Shown here in pieces: positions 8,036-54,837 of a DNA stretch of 64,000 bases; position 1 is the stretch's first letter; each line of letters starts with the position of its first letter. The notes beneath the pieces are model-generated. The model saw only the letters and a program-made list of their open reading frames with translations, ran no database searches and was not told the origin of the DNA. Source of the stretch: a virus. The stretch lies in the IMG/VR virus record IMGVR_UViG_3300042195_000059, positions 805 to 64,804 of that record. The stretch is one strand, 5' to 3'. A program made the position numbers and the translations under genes.

Positions 8036-9061
8036 TTAGTCGTTGGTCAGAATGCCGTGGAACAGCATGCCTGATGCGGTCATGTTGCCTGCCCACCCGA
8101 TAAGTCTTATCATCGCATCTTGGTTCACCGAGAAGCGATCCGGATCGAGCGGGACCATGTTCCGCTGCGAATGGGGACGCCAATACAGGTAATCGGAGTT
8201 GATGAAGAACATCGTGCCCGATGGAGCGCCGCCAACCGCGCCGACGCCAGCAGCGCCGAAGGTGTTGCCGTCGTTCACCGAACCCTGGAACCCGCCGTCG
8301 AGAACCACATCCGCATCCATGAACTTCACGGACATGAATCCGGCCTTGGCCATGTCGCTCTTTTCGTCCGTGATGCGCGCGATCGCGTGCAGCGAACGAT
8401 TGTAGACTGACCATGCGGTATTGTCGGCGAGGATCAGGTCAACCCGATCCGGGCCGCGCATGGTGTTGGTCCACATGTTGAGCATGTACTCATAGATGTT
8501 CGACGGGCTGAGAGCCGCGCCGCCATCGGTGACTGCCCGGTAGGCATAGTTCTGCCAGAACTCCCAAGCAGAACGGTCGATGCCGCCAACGGTACCGGTA
8601 GTCGGAGAAGCATCGATCAGGGCCTGCAGGCCGGTGATCTGTCCCGTAAGGGAGCCGTCCGAATAGGCATCGTAGGCAAGACCGTTGCGGAAGGTACGCT
8701 CCGCATTCTCGACACGGCTTCCAAGCAGGTCGATGATCGCCTCGCGCCCGGAGTTCTGGAGAAGCTCCAGACCCGAGATGGAGACGGCCACGGCTGCCTG
8801 ACGGATGGGATATTCTGCCGCCGTGAAGACATCCGAAGGCTGGATGTTGAGCAGCTCATATCCGCTGTAACGCGAATAGGTGCTGTTATTGGCGTATTCG
8901 ATTTCCTGAACGATCGTGCGACCGCCAGAAAAAGGCTTCTGCTTGCCACGCGCTGACAGCCGGGTCAGGACTGCGTTATTGCGGGTGACAGAATCCGCTA
9001 ATTTGCCACTACGGTTCCGAAGTGTGGTAGTGACAATTTCGCTCAGATTGGGAGACACCAT
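8036..9061 (-). CDS. major capsid protein
   Basis: 341 aa, directly after the scaffold-like gene. The N-terminus MVSPNLSEIVTTTLRNRSGKLADSVTRNNAVL resembles coat proteins of P22-like/HK97-fold families as I recall them. Confidence 0.7.
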   Translation of the reverse strand: MVSPNLSEIVTTTLRNRSGKLADSVTRNNAVLTRLSARGKQKPFSGGRTIVQEIEYANNSTYSRYSGYELLNIQPSDVFTAAEYPIRQAAVAVSISGLELLQNSGREAIIDLLGSRVENAERTFRNGLAYDAYSDGSLTGQITGLQALIDASPTTGTVGGIDRSAWEFWQNYAYRAVTDGGAALSPSNIYEYMLNMWTNTMRGPDRVDLILADNTAWSVYNRSLHAIARITDEKSDMAKAGFMSVKFMDADVVLDGGFQGSVNDGNTFGAAGVGAVGGAPSGTMFFINSDYLYWRPHSQRNMVPLDPDRFSVNQDAMIRLIGWAGNMTASGMLFHGILTND

Positions 9062-9095
9062 CGTCTCTTTCTCCTATTGAATTGTCGGGAAGGGC

Positions 9096-10322
9096 TTAAG
9101 AGTGGGCGTCCCAGGCGGCGAGAAGATCATCACGCACGGTGCCCTTCGAATTGACAGGCGCTGATACCTGTCCGGAAGGTGCTCCTCTGACCGAAACCGA
9201 TGCGCGCTTGGCGGCTTCGGACTTGGCGCGTTTTTCTTCTGCTAGCCTGTCGGCCTGGGTCTTGCTCTCTTCATTGGTTTTGCGGAGGCGGTCGTTGATG
9301 AGCGCCTCGCGAACCTCCGGGTGGAGGTAGCAAGCCTGTTCGTATGCTTTGGCAAGATCGGTCCGGAAGTCTCCGGTGCGTTCGATCACGCCGGTCGTAA
9401 ACAGACGGTTGATCGTCTCTTCGACATCGGAAAAGTAGCGGTACTCAACTGACGATTTGAGTTCGTCGATAACCTTCTGAGCTTGCGAGATCTGGCGTTC
9501 TTGATCCGCCTCCTGCCTGCTTTGAAAGGTGCTTTCGAGAGTGCTCAGTTTCTGCGTCAATGGGTTCAGAGCGGATTGAAGCGCCCTGTTGACGGCATCT
9601 CTTACATAGGGGTCGTCATACTCGTCCTGACCCGCTGGGGCCGCGCCATTTGTCTGCCCGTTCTGATGGGGCTGGGAGGCTGGCGCTGCGCCTCCAAACA
9701 TCTGCTGAAGCTGCTGCCTGCTGATGCCTGCGTTCTGGGCGATCGCGAGCAGTCCGCGCATGGGGTCCTGATTAAGAAGATTTTCAAAGCCGACATAGTT
9801 TTTCAACGCGGCTTCCAGCGTCGTGCCGGAATTCTTCGCCATCTCGGCATATTGGTCAATGCCCTTGTAGTCTCTCAGCTTGGCGAAGCCGTTATTGACC
9901 TCCTGCTCACGCTTGATAATATCGGCGCGGATATGAGACGGGAGCTGCTCCCACTCGGATTTTGACTTGATCGACCACCCCGGAGGCGGTGCGCCTTCTG
10001 CCTCTGCCGCCAGCGGCTCAGGCTCTTCCTGTGGCGGCTGCTCTTCCGTGGCTGGCTTGTCGGGTGCGGGTTCAGCCTTCGGCTCTTCCTCGCGCTCCCA
10101 TTGCGCCCTGACATCTTCTTCCGTAGCTTCGGGAGCGGTTTCCGCCGCTTTGCGAAAGCGGCCTCTTTCATCACGGGCGCGGCTGTCTGTTGGCTCGGGC
10201 GCCGCAACATCCGTTGCAGGCGCGTCACTGTCCGTCCAGCTGTCGAATGCTGCCTCGAGATCGGCGCGCACGGAAGTGTCTTCGGTGGGCGTTGATGTCG
10301 CCTCCGTCAGGTCGTCTTGCAT
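9096..10322 (-). CDS. scaffolding protein
   Basis: 408 aa, acidic, Ala/Glu/Gln-rich and helical, located between the portal-side genes and the capsid gene. Confidence 0.55.
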   Translation of the reverse strand: MQDDLTEATSTPTEDTSVRADLEAAFDSWTDSDAPATDVAAPEPTDSRARDERGRFRKAAETAPEATEEDVRAQWEREEEPKAEPAPDKPATEEQPPQEEPEPLAAEAEGAPPPGWSIKSKSEWEQLPSHIRADIIKREQEVNNGFAKLRDYKGIDQYAEMAKNSGTTLEAALKNYVGFENLLNQDPMRGLLAIAQNAGISRQQLQQMFGGAAPASQPHQNGQTNGAAPAGQDEYDDPYVRDAVNRALQSALNPLTQKLSTLESTFQSRQEADQERQISQAQKVIDELKSSVEYRYFSDVEETINRLFTTGVIERTGDFRTDLAKAYEQACYLHPEVREALINDRLRKTNEESKTQADRLAEEKRAKSEAAKRASVSVRGAPSGQVSAPVNSKGTVRDDLLAAWDAHS

Positions 10323-24635: not shown

Positions 24636-25733
24636 TCAATCCTTCCAGATTTCTTTGACGCCCTGCGTAGCAATGGAGTCATGTGAAAGCCGGAATTCAT
24701 TGGCGATGAACTTCGCCGCGACGGTGCCTTTCCTGCCCATCTTGCGCTCGACCTTCGCCTTGTCGAGGCGGATGATCGAATGCCCGTTCTTGGGGTCAAA
24801 TTTCTTTGTGCGCGCAATGCAGATGCCCCGATCGGCCTTGTTCCCAAAGTTCGAAGATCCGAAGGCATGGCCGATCTTGAACGGCTCGATTCCGCCATCG
24901 CCCTTGATGAACTTGCCGGGGATATGCGTGGCAATCACCATGATGATTTGCAGCTCGTCCACGAGATCGCGGAAAGCGCGCATGACATCCTTGACGTAAT
25001 CGGTTTCCATCTGGCGCGGGTCGCGCTGATGATCCATTTCGTTCCATGGATCTAGGAAAAAAAACCGCGTTCCGTAGCGCCGGAAATGGTAGCGGACGAG
25101 ATCCATGTACCACGAGACAAGCCGATCCTCGGACGCACGCCGGCGAACGAAATGGATCTTGTTCATCAGGTCCGGCGCGCGGTTATCGTTGGCGAACAGG
25201 TTGATGTTGCGCTTGACCTCGCTGCCCAGATCTTCCCAGGAGCACAGCATAGCGCCGCTGCCCAGCATCCGGCCGGCTTCGCTCTCATGAACGAAGTTCG
25301 CTGCAAGGATCTGGCCGATTGTGGATTTGCCGCAGCCATAAGGCCCGCAGAGAATAACCAGTTCTGGCAAGCGCCAGTACCATCCAAGCTCAGCTTGCAG
25401 GAAGGGAATGCCGGTCGGGTAAACCTTGAAATCTTCTTCCGTGATCTGCGAAACCGGGACCACATCATCCCAGAACAGATGCTTCGGCGATCCGATCCGA
25501 ACAAACAGATCATCGCCTTTTTGGAGATCCACATAGCTTAGCCGAGACGCGTCGAGCCCCCTTGCCATCAGGGACAGAGCCGCATCTTTCGGCTCATCCC
25601 CACGTCCCAGCACGATCAGTTCTCCGCTCGACAAATCGGCCTGTTCCAGATCGGAAAGCATGTACGCCGTTTCGTTGACATCGCGCAGACTGTTGAAATC
25701 GTCCACGGACATCGTGAGCCACGTTCGGGTCAT
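24636..25733 (-). CDS. replicative helicase-type ATPase (DnaB C-terminal / RecA-like, AAA_25-like)
   Basis: Track ORF trimmed to ATG 25733 (ATGA overlap). Walker A GPYGCGKST and Walker B FFFLDPWNE. Confidence 0.75.
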   Translation of the reverse strand: MTRTWLTMSVDDFNSLRDVNETAYMLSDLEQADLSSGELIVLGRGDEPKDAALSLMARGLDASRLSYVDLQKGDDLFVRIGSPKHLFWDDVVPVSQITEEDFKVYPTGIPFLQAELGWYWRLPELVILCGPYGCGKSTIGQILAANFVHESEAGRMLGSGAMLCSWEDLGSEVKRNINLFANDNRAPDLMNKIHFVRRRASEDRLVSWYMDLVRYHFRRYGTRFFFLDPWNEMDHQRDPRQMETDYVKDVMRAFRDLVDELQIIMVIATHIPGKFIKGDGGIEPFKIGHAFGSSNFGNKADRGICIARTKKFDPKNGHSIIRLDKAKVERKMGRKGTVAAKFIANEFRLSHDSIATQGVKEIWKD

Positions 25734-26611
25734 AGCAGCTCTCCCGTGTAGGTTCCGTTCAAGCTGTATGAACCGTTCATTTTTCGGTGTTTTTGATCGA
25801 GATTTCCGAACTGCTTGGCCTTGCGCATCCAGGTCTGAAAAGCCTGATCCCAGTTCAAAAACCGATTTCCCTTCGACTGGTGGAAATCTCGAAATGCATC
25901 GAACTGCTCGGCGATTTGCTCCGCAGTGGCTCCGATCTTGTTCCCCTTCGCCCACGAAATCGTCTCAGCCGCTGGTTGCCAATCCGGGGGCATTCGACGA
26001 GCGCGTTTTTTGGGCTCTGCCGGTTCATCCGAATTTTCATCGTGGGGACCAACAGGGGTATTTTTATTGGTAGTATTTTCTTTAGGGGGTGTGGGGGGTA
26101 TTTCTTTTTGCGTGGCATCACCGTGACCCTCGCTTTTTGACACCTCGGTATCACCGTGACCCTTGCTCTGTGATACCTCGGTATCTGGGAGACCCTCGCT
26201 TTTTGAACCCGGTATCACAAAGAGACCGGCTTTCTGATACCTGGCTCTCAATGACCCGGTATCACTGTGACCCTTGGTTCTGACGGTCAAGCTCTCCAGC
26301 GCTGCTTCAATATCAGTGATGGTAATGCACGATTTTGGTGTATACTCAGTTGTTGCACCGTGGTTCGGATTGACCTCAAAGAACGCTTTCAGCAGCCCGT
26401 AGGAACGCTTGAACGTGGCCTCCGAACATGATGCATCAGCGAGAATTTCGGCTCGACGCGGCGACGCTTTGCCGCCGGCCTTCTGCGCACGGCGGGCGAT
26501 GACGAGCTGAATCAGCTTTTGCTGCGCGGATGCCGGCGATGAAACGACGAGATCGAAGAACTCGTTAAAATCGAACGGCGGGATATTATGCCCCTGTCCT
26601 GGTGGGTTCAT
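25730..26611 (-). CDS. replication initiator / replisome organiser (lambda O analogue) containing the iteron array
   Basis: Track ORF trimmed to ATG 26611 (ATGA overlap). Located upstream of the helicase and Prim-Pol genes. Contains 5-6 DNA iterons that translate to GHGDTEVS-like peptide repeats. Confidence 0.6.
   Translation of the reverse strand: MNPPGQGHNIPPFDFNEFFDLVVSSPASAQQKLIQLVIARRAQKAGGKASPRRAEILADASCSEATFKRSYGLLKAFFEVNPNHGATTEYTPKSCITITDIEAALESLTVRTKGHSDTGSLRARYQKAGLFVIPGSKSEGLPDTEVSQSKGHGDTEVSKSEGHGDATQKEIPPTPPKENTTNKNTPVGPHDENSDEPAEPKKRARRMPPDWQPAAETISWAKGNKIGATAEQIAEQFDAFRDFHQSKGNRFLNWDQAFQTWMRKAKQFGNLDQKHRKMNGSYSLNGTYTGELL
26114..26277. repeat. iteron array (putative origin of replication)
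   Basis: GG(T/C)ATCACCGTGACCCT(C/T)GC-like 20-mers start at 26114, 26147, 26180, 26211 and 26258 (spacings 33, 33, 31 and 47 bp). An A/T-rich tract lies alongside at 26056-26110. Confidence 0.7.
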
Positions 26612-26889
26612 GCTGCGCCTCCTTTCCGTAGGAGATTCATGCACTTCTTGCATTTTGTGAAATTTCCAGGTGCGAATAGCGGGCACTGGCCATTGTGGAG
26701 GAACGCCGGAGCGTCTACGCTCTCGCACAGGCTCTTGTAACCACGGTCGTGACGGAGCCAGAAATGCACCTTTTGCCGGCTGACGAAGCTTAGCTGCTTG
26801 GCCCAGACTTTTGAGATGCCGTGCGGAAGTTCTCCGCCTGTGCATTTGAAGCCGGTATCCGGCATCAGGGGAACGACGTTCTCACCCAT
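26608..26889 (-). CDS. Cys-rich hypothetical protein (93 aa)
   Basis: ORF track. Its stop overlaps the start of the downstream initiator gene by 4 nt (ATGA). Confidence 0.5.
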   Translation of the reverse strand: MGENVVPLMPDTGFKCTGGELPHGISKVWAKQLSFVSRQKVHFWLRHDRGYKSLCESVDAPAFLHNGQCPLFAPGNFTKCKKCMNLLRKGGAA

Positions 26890-27094
26890 TGACGCCTCCC
26901 TGAACAGGCTGGAGAAACGACACGTGGATCATTTCAGGCTGTTTCCGGCCGTCTAATAAGACCTTGAATCGCTGGTCTGTTCTTGGATGCGGCGCTACGA
27001 TGACGCCGGTTTTCGGAAGGATTCTGTCCCGCGGGAACATCCTTGCGAAAGCGTCGTTGGTTTCGATGCGATCTCCGGGTTTGAGCTTAGACAT
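26882..27094 (-). CDS. hypothetical protein (70 aa)
   Basis: ATG 27094 is preceded by AAGGGAGG. Confidence 0.5.
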   Translation of the reverse strand: MSKLKPGDRIETNDAFARMFPRDRILPKTGVIVAPHPRTDQRFKVLLDGRKQPEMIHVSFLQPVQGGVNG

Positions 27095-27563
27095 TTGCGC
27101 CTCCCTTTATGCGATCGATGATGGAGCGGAGGGCGCGGGCTTGGCCCAACGTGATGGTAAGATCGTTTCGATCCACGCCTCCGCGCGGGAGGCGACGCGG
27201 GAAGAACCGCTCCTGCAAGCGCTCAATGAGGTTTCGATCCACGCCTCCGCGCGGGAGGCGTGGATCGAAGTAGTCCGGTAATGGCGGCTCAGGGTATTTT
27301 TGCTCACGCTTCTCAAGCGCTTGCATGATAGGCTCTGCCGCCTCTATCAGATCTGTGACCCCAAGTGCCGAAAGGACTATCTCTGCAGAAATCTCGATGA
27401 TTTCCTCGTGGTCCCCTACGGCGACGCCCTCGGGAAGATTCCGTGGATCTCCGCTCTTGCCGATGATGGTGAGAGTCTTACCGTCTTCTGATTTGAGGAC
27501 AGCAGGGCATGCGCCGATAGAGCAACGATGCTGAGGGGTGGTGATGTTTATGAGTTTGGTCAT
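27087..27563 (-). CDS. hypothetical protein (158 aa) whose 3' third is occupied by the CRISPR-like repeat-spacer-repeat
   Basis: ORF with an ATGA-coupled start. The repeats translate in frame as RLPRGGVDRN twice. The coding status of the 3' third is uncertain. Confidence 0.45.
   Translation of the reverse strand: MTKLINITTPQHRCSIGACPAVLKSEDGKTLTIIGKSGDPRNLPEGVAVGDHEEIIEISAEIVLSALGVTDLIEAAEPIMQALEKREQKYPEPPLPDYFDPRLPRGGVDRNLIERLQERFFPRRLPRGGVDRNDLTITLGQARALRSIIDRIKGGANV
27165..27262 (-). CRISPR. mini-CRISPR array: two type I-C-like 32-nt repeats and one 34-nt spacer
   Basis: Repeats at 27165-27196 and 27231-27262 share 30 of 32 nt. The period is exactly 66 nt. Minus-strand sense: GTCGCCTCCCGCGCGGAGGCGTGGATCGAAAC. 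Spacer, minus-strand sense: CTCATTGAGCGCTTGCAGGAGCGGTTCTTCCCGC. Confidence 0.7.
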
Positions 27564-27973
27564 GCGCGCTCTCCCACTGGCTGGAAGGGCTTTGAACTGG
27601 ATACAGAGGGGATAGGGGCTGTAAGCCTCTCAGGAAGCGCGACAGGGCCAAGTTCGGAAAAAGCCAGCCGTGACATCAGCTCATAGAAATCGGCGTCCAC
27701 GGCGTCAGGAAGCAGCCTCAGGGCATATAGCCATCCAACGGCGACTTCCTCGTCATAACAGCCGGTAAGCCATTCATTGATGACGCCGTGAAGGATGATC
27801 TCGGTGGTGGTTTGATCCGCGTTGAGCTTTGCGCGCCATGCGGAGGTTTCACGGCGGCGGTATTCGCCGGAGTCAACGATGGTGGCGTCAAGCGTCACGT
27901 CGTCGAGGATGTTTCCACTGTCAAGATATGGCTCTTGATCTTGCCTCAATTCGGCGCTATATGGTGTAGACAT
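27560..27973 (-). CDS. hypothetical protein (137 aa)
   Basis: ORF track. Confidence 0.5.
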   Translation of the reverse strand: MSTPYSAELRQDQEPYLDSGNILDDVTLDATIVDSGEYRRRETSAWRAKLNADQTTTEIILHGVINEWLTGCYDEEVAVGWLYALRLLPDAVDADFYELMSRLAFSELGPVALPERLTAPIPSVSSSKPFQPVGERA

Positions 27974-36024: not shown

Positions 36025-36447
36025 ATGGATGACCTCCTAATCACGCGCGATGACCTCATTAAGGGCGGCCTTTGCATGGAAGGCGTGAATGAGGTCATCA
36101 GCAGGGTTTGGCCAATCGCTGCGGCGATGCCGATCAGCGCCATTCTGCCAAGCCTCGACGAAGACGAGAAAGACCAGATGCTAACCGCCGTCAAGGCGGA
36201 CGGCTACGGCAACGGCAACGGCAACGGCGACGGCTCCGGCTACGGCTCCGGCGACGGCTACGGCAACGGCAACGGCAACGGCGACGGCTACGGCTACGGC
36301 TACGGCAACGGCGACGGCGACGGCTACGGCTACGGCTACGGCTACGGCTACGGCAACGGCGACGGCTCCGGCTACGGCTCCGGCGACGGCTACGGCAACG
36401 GCAACGGCAACGGCGACGGCGACGGCTACGGCTACGGCTACGATTAG
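36025..36447 (+). CDS. protein with a 57-aa N-terminal domain and 41 consecutive [D/Y/N/S]-Gly dipeptides
   Basis: The ORF continues from a non-repetitive N-terminus (MDDLLITRDDLIKGGLCMEGVNEV...) into DGYGNGNGNGDGSGYGSGDGYG...GYGYGYD. Confidence 0.6.
   Translation: MDDLLITRDDLIKGGLCMEGVNEVISRVWPIAAAMPISAILPSLDEDEKDQMLTAVKADGYGNGNGNGDGSGYGSGDGYGNGNGNGDGYGYGYGNGDGDGYGYGYGYGYGNGDGSGYGSGDGYGNGNGNGDGDGYGYGYD
36199..36444 (+). repeat. GGC-NAC hexanucleotide tandem repeat (246 nt) with a ~63-nt higher-order duplication
   Basis: Units GGCTAC, GGCAAC, GGCGAC and GGCTCC. The block GGCGACGGCTCCGGCTACGGCTCCGGCGACGGCTACGGCAACGGCAACGGCAACGGCGACGGC occurs twice. Confidence 0.9.
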
Positions 36448-36500
36448 TCTATTTCACCAAACTCTCTGCCTCCTCCCTCAGTAATGGAAGAGAGCAACTA

Positions 36501-36545
36501 AGCCCCAGCCGCACAGCCAAACCAACTAAGGCTGGGGCTTTTTTC
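36501..36545 (+). terminator. intrinsic terminator
   Basis: 10-bp stem AGCCCCAGCC/GGCTGGGGCT (36501-36510 / 36530-36539) followed by TTTTTT. The 19-nt loop is long. Confidence 0.55.
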
Positions 36546-36561
36546 AAAGAAGGTTGAGATC

Positions 36562-52693: not shown

Positions 52694-53413
52694 TCACGCC
52701 ATTTGCAGATAACAACTCACGAGCCCATTGGTCCCTTCGTCGTCCATATCCACAGTCGTGTCTTGCGGCGCTGAATTGTAGATTCTGAATTTCAGAAACA
52801 GGATGGTATCGGGATTAATTTCCCCGCCTGCCGCTGGGGTAAATGTACGTGGGTCAACCCCGCCTGTGCCGTAATATGCAGCGATTACCACCAAGGGGGC
52901 ATCACCCCCGGACGCAGCGACATTCTGGCTCGATGGATTTCCCGTTGTGCCCTCGCTGTTGACTGTAGAAGGCGTGATCATTGTCGCCGCCGGAGAACGC
53001 CGGAACACCGCCAACGCCTTCTTGTTTGCAAAGACAGGATCAATCCCCGCGATTGATGTACTACCTTCGCTTCCGTCAGCCTCCTTATAGCTGACAACCA
53101 TTGCGGTCGTAGCGGAGGGGGTGAAACTAGCAAGCGCAGTAAAGTCCGTCGGCGTAGCAGGAGTGACAGCCCCGAAATCCTGACCGATATCGGCAAGGAC
53201 CAGTAAATCGCCAGCCTGAATGTTAGGAGGCACCGTGATTGTATCATCAGTGCTAACGGCTGAATCGAAAAAAAGAATAGCTGCAGCGGACGAAGCAGCC
53301 ATCATCAGCCCCGGAAACATCCCCGGCAAAAAGCTCGCCTTCTGAACAGGCGCGGGCCGGATGATTGCAGGCTTTGCAGGCAGCCAGATTTTCGGCGGAA
53401 GATCCCAGATCAT
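52694..53413 (-). CDS. tail-associated protein (239 aa)
   Basis: ATGA-coupled to the collagen-like fibre gene. Confidence 0.5.
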
Positions 53414-54837
53414 GCCGGACTCCCATCAACCGCAGTCACGATGAACTGACCGGTCGCGCGGCAATAAATCGTAAGCAGATAGCCCTTCGTCGTCGTGATA
53501 TCGTCGAGCGTTGGCGGTGCGCCGCCATACTCACTGCCGAAAGTAAGCGTGTCCGGTCCGCCATCACTAATGACGAACACCGTTCGGAACGTGCCGGGGA
53601 TTTCATTGGTAGGATTGCCGAGAATGCGATTCGTGGTGAGCGTCAGCGTGAAGTTGATTCCCGCCGTCCAGTCGATTGCGACGGTGGCGGCATCTGTGAG
53701 CGCCACGAGGGCGTTCGCTGTTTGCAAATCTTGCGCCGTGATGGCGTGAGCGCCTGATGTGGCGGCGTAGATTTCTGCATCTGTTGCCAGATCAACGATG
53801 CCTTCTGTGCCCTCAGTCGCTGTCGCGGGGGTTGGTCCAGTTGGGCCGGTCGGCCCAGTCGCTCCCGTGACGCCCGTGGGACCAGTCGGGCCTGTAACGC
53901 CAGTTGGCCCCGTTGCGCCAAGGTCTCCGGCTCGCGCAAATTCCAGAACGCAAGGATCAGTGTTTGATAGCGTTCCAGCGCTCACGACATGAGTTAGTGC
54001 GAGCTGCGTCCAACCAGTATCGTCTGTACTGGCTCCGGTAATATTATATATCGCAAAATTTGCCGGGTCAGCGATCTGCTTGATATATAGCGTACCGCGA
54101 ACCGAATTCGTACTATCATCCCATGCGAGGATGGCGTTGGTCACCGCTGGATTGCCTGTATCAGCAGAATTATCCGATACAGCCGCTGCTGTGACTGAGG
54201 CGAGCGTCGCATTGTTGAGGCGGAAATCACCGGCCCCAGGGTCAGCCATGGCGGTCGCGCTGTCGAACAGGAACCGATAACCGGGATGCGCACCATCAAC
54301 GCCGGTTGGCCCTGTCGGTCCTGTTGCGCCGGTCGGCCCAGTGACACCAGTCGGCCCCGTTGGCCCGGTAACACCAGTGGGGCCAGTTGGCCCCGTTGCG
54401 CCAGTGACCCCCGTTGGTCCGGTAGGTCCAGTTGCGCCAGTCGGGCCTCCTGATGGCCCTGTCGGACCTTCCGGCCCTGTCGGTCCCGTTGGACCCGTTG
54501 GACCCGTTAACCCTGTTGACGCGTCAACCAAGCGCCCGCCAGTCAAGATCAGATCGCCGCCGTCGCCGTCGCAAAATATCGAAAGATGCGTCTCGCCAGC
54601 GAGAACCCCTATATAAGCAGGATCAGCCGTAGACCCCGGCAAAAGCCGCATCGACGTGTCTTTGTCGCCCGTGACCGTACCGTCGCCGAGCTTGATCCAT
54701 ATCGCATCCATGTTCCCCTGACGCGAGGTCAGGCGGATCATCGGAGCATCAGCAGGCAGCGGCGGGAGTTCGACGCGTTGATCCGTTTGCGTGACGGTGA
54801 TTATATCACCATCACCCAAGGGGGCGAATATCGTCAT
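53410..54837 (-). CDS. tail fibre with collagen-like Gly-X-Y repeats
   Basis: (GPT/GAT/GVT)n blocks at aa 109-182 (nt 54292-54513) and aa 307-335 (nt 53833-53919). Confidence 0.75.

Follow-up and report, generated by a model that had tools for sequence, protein, structure and literature searches.

A type I-C CRISPR repeat-spacer-repeat unit in frame within an early gene of a phage

Solitary CRISPR repeats and mini-arrays borne by phages are known devices of counter-defence and competition (PMC10651486; PMC6858448; PMC11656645). Solitary type I-C repeats have been experimentally validated as anti-CRISPR RNAs (RacrIC1; PMC10651486), and the SRUFinder pipeline masks ORFs and counts intragenic matches as false positives (PMC10651486), so that an intragenic class of such elements would be missed by it. 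Cracr spacers possess at least 9 PAM-proximal matches to the promoters of host cas or toxin genes and are accompanied by degenerate repeats (bioRxiv 10.1101/2024.10.29.618823). As for the processing of type I-C repeats, what Cas5c reads is the cleavage site together with the single-stranded 3' tail, and neither the 5' overhang nor the loop (PMC8524198).

The locus described here, found in a 64,000-nt stretch of viral DNA (hereafter the window), belongs to a type of element that is already known; what is unusual is its position inside a gene. One spacer lies between host-identical repeats in a viral genome devoid of cas genes, as in virus-borne mini-CRISPR arrays, which have 1-2 spacers. The adjacent cas genes and the AT-rich, promoter-bearing leader of a canonical CRISPR-Cas locus are absent and the unit is located inside an ORF. 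Where a Racr is intergenic and solitary, lacking any further copy within about 100 bp, this unit comprises two repeat copies 66 nt apart, both within ORF 27087-27563. The features referred to below are the following:

27087..27563, minus strand: early ORF of 158 aa (from the program-made ORF list), harbouring the insertion
27165..27266, minus strand: insertion of 102 nt (GATC, repeat copy 1, spacer, repeat copy 2), coding for residues 100-133 (DPRLPRGGVDRNLIERLQERFFPRRLPRGGVDRN)
27231..27262, minus strand: repeat copy 1, the first to be transcribed, CACGCCTCCCGCGCGGAGGCGTGGATCGAAAC, type I-C but with CA in place of GT at positions 1-2
27197..27230, minus strand: spacer of 34 nt, CTCATTGAGCGCTTGCAGGAGCGGTTCTTCCCGC, unique in the window
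27165..27196, minus strand: repeat copy 2, canonical type I-C, GTCGCCTCCCGCGCGGAGGCGTGGATCGAAAC, an exact match to 171 array repeats
27233..27269, minus strand: perfect palindrome of 16 bp with a 5-nt loop, TTCGATCCACGCCTCC / CGCGC / GGAGGCGTGGATCGAA, from an inverted repeat search

The unit, its phage and its bacterial counterparts

Genes for a terminase, RecT, an integrase, PrimPol and an SU10 adaptor protein mark the window as viral; its large terminase is at most 39% identical to that of any GenBank phage. The 158-aa ORF is placed in the replication/early module on the minus strand, where it overlaps ORF 27560-27973 upstream and ORF 26882-27094 downstream, both on the same strand, and is followed by genes for a replication initiator, a helicase and PrimPol. 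It belongs to a small, conserved family without matches in Pfam or PHROG, in which an N-terminal Cys-containing domain and a C-terminal RALRSIIDRIKGG helix are conserved. The original prediction had noted no cas genes nearby, and indeed none of the 90 window ORFs scanned against PADLOC and Pfam matches a Cas family. No promoter-like site was found upstream of the unit on the minus strand, nor any dedicated promoter or leader. An alphaproteobacterial host is only indirectly supported, the sole hints being a GcrA-like gene in relatives and the taxa that bear the exact 32-mer; the window contains no tRNA genes, and matches of its outer-membrane-protein gene to plasmids were not informative on the host.

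A repeat search confirmed the predicted arrangement of two repeat units lying 66 nt apart, sharing 30 nt and enclosing a unique 34-nt spacer: two 30-nt copies, at 27165-27194 and 27231-27260, are 100% identical. The full 32-mer GTCGCCTCCCGCGCGGAGGCGTGGATCGAAAC matches the minus strand at 27165-27196 with 0 mismatches and at 27231-27262 with 2 (CA for GT); the window contains no further site at up to 3 mismatches and no meaningful one at up to 9, and 0.00 chance matches are expected (100 shuffles). Copy 2 reads GT-CGCCTCC-CGCGC-GGAGGCG-TGGATCGAAAC, that is, a 2-nt 5' overhang, a 7-bp stem, a 5-nt loop and an 11-nt 3' tail ending in GAAAC, which is the type I-C architecture; copy 1 differs only in its 5' dinucleotide. 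As had been proposed, the transcribed (minus) strand carries the unit in crRNA sense, and the ORF translation agrees that it is read in frame, RLPRGGVDRN being encoded twice in the 158-aa ORF. Simple tandem duplication, already dismissed in the original prediction, is rejected: Tandem Repeats Finder reports no array at the unit, so only the 30-32-nt repeat is doubled. Rfam returned no CRISPR family, only two chance matches below threshold, one to a miRNA and the other to an sRNA from Streptomyces (E about 0.7).

The assignment to type I-C was borne out by bacterial genomes. Long arrays with a period of 66 nt at 10 genomic loci contain 171 copies of the exact 32-mer; they come from Sphingomonas (S. 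flavalba among them), Sphingobium, Pedomonas, Xanthobacter, Sphingosinicella and Rhodobacteraceae. In Pedomonas sp. V897 (L070), the array is preceded on its own strand by a full set of I-C effector and adaptation genes (cas5c, cas8c, cas7/Csd2, cas4, cas1c and cas2), recognised by I-C-specific NCBIfam models with E-values of 1e-51 to 1e-154. A variant with one mismatch adjoins an annotated I-C operon of the same arrangement on Rhizobium sp. Q54 plasmid LR606150.1. The predicted array geometry likewise holds, as 34 nt is the length found most often in the 1,898 spacers that accompany this repeat family. The unit is thus almost certainly a genuine repeat-spacer-repeat of a host type I-C array, placed in crRNA sense inside an early phage gene.

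The same repeat is also present in other phage contigs. One relative (L126), collinear with the window over 18.0-22.1 kb at 92-100% identity in patches, bears the identical 32-mer at another locus; this solitary repeat precedes a small ORF by 19 nt and lies within an accessory island of roughly 730 nt. Neither of the 2 island ORFs matches a PHROG, and the 92-aa ORF, the only one compared with the PDB, has no match there. Other phage contigs have solitary copies as well, and in a second contig (L123) the 5' flank of the repeat is again complementary to the handle. A survey of IMG/VR with the 14-mer handle GCGTGGATCGAAAC found the hairpin in 4 of the 120 matches listed, most of which are chance matches.

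Insertion site and origin of the unit

That orthologues might reveal the unit as an insertion had been suggested, and they do. Two related contigs (L121 and L122) display an empty site at the DNA level, TACTT-CGATC-TCACC, with flanks about 95% identical to those of the window, whereas in the filled site CGATC is found at both junctions (27263-27267 and 27161-27165). The insert is absent from all 21 homologues of the ORF (110-193 aa), and the protein alignment has the same gap as the DNA alignment. RLPRGGVDRN occurs in none of the homologues, and a selected protein repeat is therefore rejected; nothing else that the original prediction had named as speaking against it was encountered either. 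The insert region varies in length across the family and is modelled by AlphaFold as a low-confidence linker (pLDDT 53-67) between helices 69-89 and 139-152, the spacer-encoded peptide being predicted as helical. Judged by this alignment, the unit is a recent in-frame insertion of 102 nt into a variable linker. The repeats have not drifted away from the host consensus, so the event is very recent. Read-through of the insert is unremarkable, since 4 of the 6 combinations of frame and orientation are free of stops. The element is carried by one contig, itself outside the IMG/VR and metagenome collections searched, so the insertion has no independent replicate.

Copy 1 has been altered in a peculiar manner. 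The original prediction had extended its hairpin to a perfect 15-bp stem; the stem is indeed perfect, but 16 bp long, its arms (27233-27248 and 27254-27269) being 100% complementary. The left arm consists of TTCGATC, which the empty site shows to be native to the phage, followed by CA and the repeat stem. Direct reading shows this arm to be the same as positions 3-18 of the reverse-complemented repeat. The left junction has 16 nt in common with the antisense repeat strand, 7 of them native to the phage, which we read as the signature of a template switch. According to RNA folding, the palindrome would base-pair 9 of the 11 nt of the crRNA 5' handle. The CA variant was found in none of 1,966 repeats from 120 genomic CRISPR loci, nor in the metagenome collection, and none of about 2,000 array repeats has either CA or a stem extension of at least 2 bp. 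By contrast, 2 of the 5 phage-borne copies seen (copy 1 and that of L123) have an extended stem, against 0 of the about 2,000 array copies.

Quasipalindrome or template-switch mutagenesis and microhomology-mediated break-induced replication are general mechanisms by which such junctions may form. From the junction sequence, we infer that the unit was probably copied into the phage recently, by replication template switching onto a host array. A nascent phage strand ending in TTCGATC would have annealed to the complementary GATCGAA of an array repeat and copied CA-CGCCTCC from the antisense direction; a strand switch within the 7-bp palindromic stem would then have led to copying of the sense strand, namely the loop, the handle, one spacer and the next repeat, before a return to the phage template 4-5 nt upstream of the point of departure, which would have duplicated (C)GATC. 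The insert would be tolerated because 36 + 66 nt maintain the frame, the frame is stop-free and the site is a hypervariable linker. Features in common with these general mechanisms are the concerted 2-nt change (GT>CA) that perfects the hairpin and the location of the junctions at short microhomologies (7 nt TTCGATC and 7 nt CGCCTCC). What differs is that copying would have run from a host CRISPR array into the genome of a phage, as judged from the junctions only. A point against the model is that the return junction offers just 0-1 nt of microhomology. Donor arrays were sought with the four stop-free translations of the insert, so as to catch spurious ORFs called across arrays, and the peptide encoded by the spacer was absent from the best 120 of 286 array-derived ORFs in the protein database.

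Possible roles of the unit

If transcribed with the early leftward operon, the unit would place two Cas5c recognition hairpins on the mRNA at the start of infection. Our tentative reading, to which we give somewhat less than even weight, is that the unit acts as an early-expressed CRISPR-RNA mimic or competitor that engages host Cas5c/Cascade, with a Racr-like net effect; its two serious competitors are a neutral scar and a guide-producing mini-array. Copy 2, being canonical, is a predicted Cas5c substrate; in copy 1, the handle nucleotides read by Cas5c (U22-G23-G24 and the 3' tail) would be locked in the 16-bp stem. Such a mimic would bind Cas5c and nucleate Cascade on non-targeting or aberrant RNA, and the phage-targeting crRNAs of the host would be diluted. 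Consistent with this are the sense orientation of the unit in an early operon, the identical 32-mer retained by L126 as a solitary repeat, the complementarity of the L123 5' flank to the handle and a spacer without detectable target. Nevertheless, the unit is known from one contig and from a very recent event, with no sign of conservation or purifying selection, and validated Racrs are solitary, intergenic and often located beside acr genes, while this unit contains a spacer, lies inside a gene and is flanked by no recognisable acr gene. Moreover, copy 1 supplies an intact 11-nt handle and copy 2 an intact 21-nt hairpin, the two parts required for one canonical crRNA of 66 nt, so that a guide function would be equally feasible if copy 1 were cleaved. 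Translating ribosomes may also melt the hairpins, and Cas5c cutting of an essential early mRNA could be costly to the phage. A distinctly unlikely elaboration would be a dual-use sequence, at once a translated segment and a Cas-binding RNA, in which copy 1 would serve as a non-cleavable Cas5c trap and copy 2 would recruit Cas5c/Cascade onto the early mRNA.

It is possible, albeit doubtful, that the unit has no adaptive role and is a neutral or slightly harmful scar, an array unit captured by accident through template switching or illegitimate recombination, which persists only because it is in frame, stop-free and situated in a permissive linker. The junction anatomy points to a replication accident; 4 of 6 frame-orientation combinations would have been open, the linker is variable in length across the family, and the undrifted repeats, a mark of a very recent event, are carried by a single contig without conservation. 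The lack of a dedicated promoter or leader and of a spacer target also fits a scar. It is harder to reconcile with the fact that the insertion is the consensus genotype of an assembled phage population, despite adding 34 aa to a conserved protein and Cas5c sites to the mRNA of an essential operon. Furthermore, L126 has the same repeat independently at another locus and other phage contigs have solitary copies, which suggests recurrent retention in this phage lineage.

An unlikely alternative function is that of a guide-producing mini-array, in which host Cas5c would cut both repeats to release one canonical crRNA, aiming the I-C Cascade-Cas3 of the host at a competing phage or plasmid in interviral conflict or superinfection exclusion. 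Copy 1 has a sequence-perfect handle and copy 2 a sequence-perfect hairpin, and the two changed bases fall outside the mature crRNA (architecture per PMC8524198); the spacer has the commonest length of 34 nt and the unit is in sense orientation; and viruses are known to carry mini-arrays whose repeats are identical to those of the host and which have been shown to act in interviral conflict (PMC6858448; PMC11656645). In known mini-arrays, however, most spacers match related viruses, and the proposed search of phage and plasmid databases with this spacer yielded no protospacer. There was no match to the exact 34-mer in IMG/VR and no protospacer for two 20-mers of the spacer there, only chance matches (E of at least 0.1) by blastn against GenBank phages and PLSDB plasmids, no target in the metagenome collection when every sixth position was left free, and none in the retrieved parts of related phages. 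The 3' 20-mer does match two related contigs in a coding motif for QERFFP, but these are not protospacers because the PAM-proximal 14 nt are unrelated. When the 1,898 array spacers were compared with the window and with the spacer, the single match was a low-complexity one to a hexamer repeat at 36.2 kb. A related virus or mobile element with a matching sequence and the correct PAM, as looked for in a mini-array, was thus not found in this sparsely sampled phage lineage, and that sparse sampling limits the power of the search. Against a guide also speaks the 16-bp stem sequestering the copy 1 handle, whose nucleotides Cas5c needs to be accessible, and a lytic early operon, silent in the lysogen, is a poor fit to prophage-mediated exclusion.

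It is very improbable that the unit encodes a Cracr-type regulatory RNA, whose spacer would pair partially with the promoter of a host cas or CRISPR-guarding toxin gene so that Cascade represses immunity genes. Viral Cracr mini-arrays have been described, type I-C included (bioRxiv 10.1101/2024.10.29.618823), and the site expected for this spacer would be TTC followed by CTCATTGAG... in a host cas3 or cas5 promoter. In 120 I-C loci, including the cas3-cas5c intergenic region of L070, no TTC PAM adjoins 9 or more PAM-proximal matches, and the only match in the fully annotated Rhizobium I-C locus, 8 positions (seven bases and one free), falls inside cas8c and is at chance level. Seed pairing of the spacer to cas loci is accordingly weakly disfavoured, with nothing beyond chance in these 120 loci and the Rhizobium locus. 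Furthermore, the repeats are non-degenerate and the spacer is of full length, unlike those of typical crRNA-like regulatory RNAs.

Finally, although the unit is translated in frame with a spacer-encoded part predicted to be helical and is supported by a single contig, a selected protein repeat or a metagenome assembly artefact unrelated to CRISPR is hardly tenable, given that the peptide is found in no homologue, that the copies agree at 30 of 30 nucleotides with each other and with a CRISPR repeat present in hundreds of copies elsewhere, and that a chimera would need two junctions sharing only 4-7 nt, far below assembler k-mer sizes.

Comparison with described systems

The locus offers a view of the route by which phages gain solitary repeats and mini-arrays, as the filled and empty sites can here be compared base by base, and the junctions suggest that replication switched template to a host array. 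The case also shows that elements of this kind can lie within genes and undergo translation, a location deliberately masked by the published solitary-repeat search. Were the insert active, RNA-based anti-CRISPR activity or Cas hijacking would extend to dual-coding sequences in essential early operons, with a handle-sequestering hairpin as a suggested design feature. Should the dual-use reading be true, this would be the first captured intermediate showing that Racr and mini-array elements are gained by template switching onto host arrays, and ORF-masking pipelines would systematically miss an intragenic class of CRISPR mimics.

Chromosomal or plasmid I-C arrays, such as those of Pedomonas sp. 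V897 and Rhizobium sp. Q54 (LR606150.1), share with the unit the 32-nt repeat, the 34-nt spacer, the 66-nt period and the orientation relative to transcription; the unit differs in having one spacer, no leader, no adjacent cas genes, a location in a phage ORF and altered positions 1-2. Cracr, of which type I-C examples are known, has in common with the unit a repeat-spacer-repeat architecture carried by a phage, but the repeats of the unit are canonical and no promoter site with at least 9 matches was found for its spacer in the I-C loci searched. Like RacrIC1 (Camara-Wilpert et al. 2023, PMC10651486), it is a phage copy of a host I-C repeat, transcribed in a setting without cas genes, and the relative L126 bears a true solitary unit beside a small ORF; unlike RacrIC1, it lies within a gene, comprises two repeats around a full-length spacer and is accompanied by no recognised acr gene. 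In virus-borne mini-CRISPR arrays (Medvedeva et al. 2019, PMC6858448; PMC11656645), one spacer likewise lies between repeats identical to cellular ones, in a virus that has no cas genes and depends on the Cas proteins of its host. The present unit departs from these in being in frame in a conserved coding gene rather than intergenic, with no leader or promoter of its own, in having a spacer for which no target was found in related viruses, and in the remodelling of its first repeat into a long perfect palindrome; here, in addition, a relative with the empty site directly displays the acquisition of the unit.

A type I-C repeat pair inside an early phage gene

On its minus strand the region reads ...GACTACTTCGATC-CACGCCTCCCGCGCGGAGGCGTGGATCGAAAC-CTCATTGAGCGCTTGCAGGAGCGGTTCTTCCCGC-GTCGCCTCCCGCGCGGAGGCGTGGATCGAAAC-GATCTTACC..., and is made up of three parts:

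27231-27262, minus strand: copy 1 of the repeat, transcribed first, starting with CA
27197-27230, minus strand: spacer
27165-27196, minus strand: copy 2, the canonical 32-mer

A repeat search of the window recovered two 30-nt copies (27165-27194 and 27231-27260) that are 100% identical and spaced by 66 nt, and the 34-nt spacer occurs only once in the window, in agreement with the original prediction of repeats sharing 30 nt, 66 nt apart, around a unique spacer. The 32-mer matches two window sites (with 0 and 2 mismatches), against a chance expectation of none; when up to 9 mismatches were allowed across the window, the sole extra match was this site again, read in reverse through its palindrome. 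Tandem Repeats Finder did not call the region. The unit lies within the 158-aa ORF 27087-27563(-), whose translation (...DYF-DPRLPRGGVDRN-LIERLQERFFPR-RLPRGGVDRN-DLTITLG...) bears out the predicted in-frame reading of RLPRGGVDRN. Copy 1 is embedded in a perfect inverted repeat with a 5-nt loop (arms 27233-27248 and 27254-27269); the perfect stem predicted at this copy is therefore real, although it measures 16 bp and not 15.

A scan of one genome per species with the query GTCGCCTCC-N5-GGAGGCGTGGATYGAAAC retrieved at least 120 loci, of which the majority are long arrays repeating every ~66 nt. Among the matches listed, the exact 32-mer occurs at least 171 times in at least 10 loci, including Sphingomonas flavalba, two Sphingomonas MAGs, a Sphingobium MAG, Pedomonas sp. 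V897, Xanthobacter sp. V8C-5, a Sphingosinicella MAG and a Rhodobacteraceae MAG. In the Pedomonas locus (L070), cas5c, cas8c/Csd1, cas7/Csd2, cas4, cas1c and cas2 precede the array on its own strand, with every gene match above curated NCBIfam cut-offs, so that both the type I-C assignment and the expectation of cas-linked copies held. A Rhizobium plasmid carries a one-mismatch repeat in an annotated cas3-cas5-cas8c-cas7-cas4-cas1-cas2-array locus of the same orientation. The modal spacer length, 34 nt, accounts for 836 of the 1,898 spacers extracted from the listed array loci. As described for type I-C, the window repeat has a 2-nt overhang, a 7-bp stem, a 5-nt loop and an 11-nt tail; Cas5c cleaves such repeats after nucleotide 21, leaving an 11-nt 5' handle and a 21-nt 3' hairpin (PMC8524198). 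The element is securely identified as a type I-C repeat-spacer-repeat and, since GTCGC...GAAAC reads on the minus strand, the early mRNA carries it in crRNA sense.

The window represents a phage genome or prophage and encodes a large terminase, RecT, an integrase, PrimPol and a DnaB-like helicase, as well as a replication initiator with a DnaT-like domain, an SU10-type adaptor, an MT-A70 methylase and a PAPS-reductase/DndC-like protein. The 158-aa ORF belongs to a series of overlapping, co-oriented minus-strand ORFs, with the initiator, helicase and primase genes following directly downstream. As predicted, no cas genes are nearby: a scan of 90 ORFs against PADLOC and Pfam gave no match to a Cas family. 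The unit has neither a sigma-70-like promoter nor a terminator associated with it on the minus strand. Hints on the host come from a GcrA-like protein encoded in relatives and from the occurrence of the exact repeat mainly in Alphaproteobacteria.

Several other repeats were noted in the window. A 33-nt tandem repeat (26117-26218; 3.2 copies, 78% matches) within the replication-initiator ORF 25730-26845(-) resembles iterons and may mark the phage replication origin. The hexamer ACGGCT is repeated 40 times at 36200-36442, within ORF 36108-36557(+); a I-C spacer of a Desulfovibrionaceae locus matches this run at 31 of 33 positions, which we rejected as a low-complexity coincidence and not true targeting. 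Repeats with periods of 9 and 27 nt (54305-54530) in ORF 53410-54837(-) would be consistent with a Pfam collagen triple-helix match located somewhere in the window (the scan does not specify the ORF), which suggests a collagen-like tail fibre.

Insertion of the unit and origin of copy 1

The ORF family is small (21 other proteins among 5.8 billion); its N-terminal part and C-terminal RALRSIIDRIKGG helix are conserved, while the intervening stretch varies in length. RLPRGGVDRN is absent from every homologue. In the nearest one (P0002), ...PLPDYF is directly followed by DLTITLGQ..., and the two contigs encoding it (L121 and L122) match the window DNA at ~95% identity on either side of a gap of exactly 102 nt, as the proposed alignment of orthologues would reveal for an insertion. 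The empty site reads TACTT-CGATC-TCACC and the filled site TACTT-CGATC-[CACGCC...GAAA-CGATC]-TTACC; the insert therefore consists of GATC, copy 1, spacer and copy 2, with (C)GATC at both junctions. The unit is securely a recent insertion, and a protein repeat was rejected on the same evidence. The frame is preserved because 102 = 36 + 66, and the insert has no stop codon in four of its six possible combinations of frame and orientation, so the in-frame read-through is unremarkable. AlphaFold (mean pLDDT 69.6) renders residues 100-133 as a lower-confidence linker between helices 69-89 and 139-152.

Two further observations concern this family. In P0018 (193 aa, on a 5,075-nt JGI contig), the C-terminal half of the ORF family is preceded by the N-terminal portion of a cytosine methylase, probably through deletion or frameshift, since the fused genes are neighbours in relatives. 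IS605-type OrfB/TnpB (Cas12f1-like) genes lie near the homologue in related phages (L127, 8945-10108; L129, 4762-5886 and 8285-9199), and mobile inserts seem to build up in the early regions of this phage group.

Copy 1 is canonical except at positions 1-2, where CA replaces GT. Joined to the native TTCGATC upstream, this CA produces TTCGATCCACGCCTCC, which corresponds to positions 3-18 of the repeat reverse complement and is the perfect complement of GGAGGCGTGGATCGAA; CA itself is complementary to TG at repeat positions 22-23. The phage already had TTCGATC before insertion, as seen in the empty site, and the insertion site therefore offered a 7-nt inverted microhomology to the repeat handle (chance ~6e-5 per site). 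Neither a CA start nor a stem extension of at least 2 bp occurs in any of 1,966 repeats of genuine arrays, and the CA variant was likewise not found in the metagenome collection. Other variants of positions 1-2 (AT, GC and GG twice) appear in 4 of 1,965 repeats of the retrieved genuine arrays (L022 at 1284, L067 and L076, minus strand); the AT copy (L022) is the 5'-most repeat of its array, a hint of weaker constraint on the 5' dinucleotide in first repeats.

On the simplest reading, copy 1 would result from templated synthesis by one of two routes. Capture may have involved a double template switch, from the phage strand to the repeat in antisense direction at TTCGATC and then from antisense to sense strand inside the 7-bp stem CGCCTCC; alternatively, quasipalindrome correction could have followed capture. 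A different origin, in which a solitary repeat inserted first and host Cas1-Cas2 then added the spacer, may also apply, as the exact 30-nt duplication fits if the spacer is counted as 36 nt.

Predicted RNA and search for a target

The copy 1 handle (UGGAUCGAAAC) and the copy 2 hairpin (GUCGCC...GGCG) are both intact, so one canonical 66-nt crRNA could be released if both sites were cut. Folding of the unit RNA (minimum free energy -69.3 kcal/mol, z-score -3.9) predicts that the copy 1 handle is paired, whether within the local 16-bp hairpin or to copy 2. BhaCas5c reads U22-G23-G24 and the 3' tail, and not the loop or 5' overhang (PMC8524198); judged by its sequence, copy 2 would be a normal Cas5c substrate.

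The suggested spacer query against phage and plasmid databases returned no target: no protospacer or identical spacer was found in IMG/VR (exact 34-mer and two 20-mers), GenBank phages, PLSDB, the metagenome collection, the 1,898 array spacers and 0.9 Mb of CRISPR loci, or related phage loci, nor was a donor spacer found in the best 120 of 286 spurious ORFs translated from arrays of the repeat family. None of the 1,898 array spacers targets the window. The spacer shares 23 of 34 positions with the opposite strand of the 158-aa ORF ~90 nt upstream (27309-27342, plus strand; core AGCGCTTGCA) and 21 of 34 with the equivalent segment of L121; the former match ranks close to the top of the background distribution, though probably due to chance because PAM-proximal positions mismatch.

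Other phage-borne copies and possible functions

Three IMG/VR contigs carry a single copy of the repeat family (L123, L124 and L126). L126 (IMGVR_UViG_3300026196_000022), which has the exact 32-mer, is a relative of the window phage, with equal GC content and collinear patches 92-100% identical to window 18.0-22.1 kb. In place of the 58 nt that separate 19062 and 19120 in the window, it holds an island of ~730 nt (8935-9663) with the following features:

9588-9617, minus strand: solitary repeat, 19 nt upstream of a 92-aa ORF (MTPLEFKAWFEG...)
second ORF, 85 aa, convergent

The 92-aa ORF has no known relatives and no PHROG or PDB match, and the 85-aa ORF no PHROG match. With its solitary repeat beside a small ORF, the island resembles published racr-acr loci (PMC10651486) and is a candidate for one. 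The solitary I-C repeat of L123 (6510-6552; T variant) lacks the 5' GT, and its 5' flank ATCCA (one bulged A) is complementary to the handle TGGAT; with it, two phage-borne copies have an extended stem, a feature that none of ~2,000 array repeats shows. The L124 copy is canonical. As copies occupy different loci in the lineage, the same host repeat was acquired at least twice.

We tentatively rank first an early-expressed CRISPR-RNA mimic or competitor, because of early-operon expression, the sequestered handle, the lack of a target and the solitary-repeat relative. A neutral scar is a possible but more doubtful reading, in keeping with the single observation, the very recent date of the event and junctions that look accidental. 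A guide-producing mini-array is less probable again; every crRNA part is intact, and guide production is a known behaviour of viral mini-arrays (PMC6858448; PMC11656645). Regulation of the Cracr type (viral crRNA-like regulatory RNA) is unlikely, no target with TTC and at least 9 PAM-proximal matches having been found in the cas loci examined, and so are a protein repeat and an assembly artefact.

That phages carry mini-arrays and solitary repeats is established. What is new here is the intragenic, translated position of the unit, of a kind that the SRUFinder pipeline masks by design (PMC10651486), the empty site directly visible beside the filled one, and a first repeat perfected into a palindrome.
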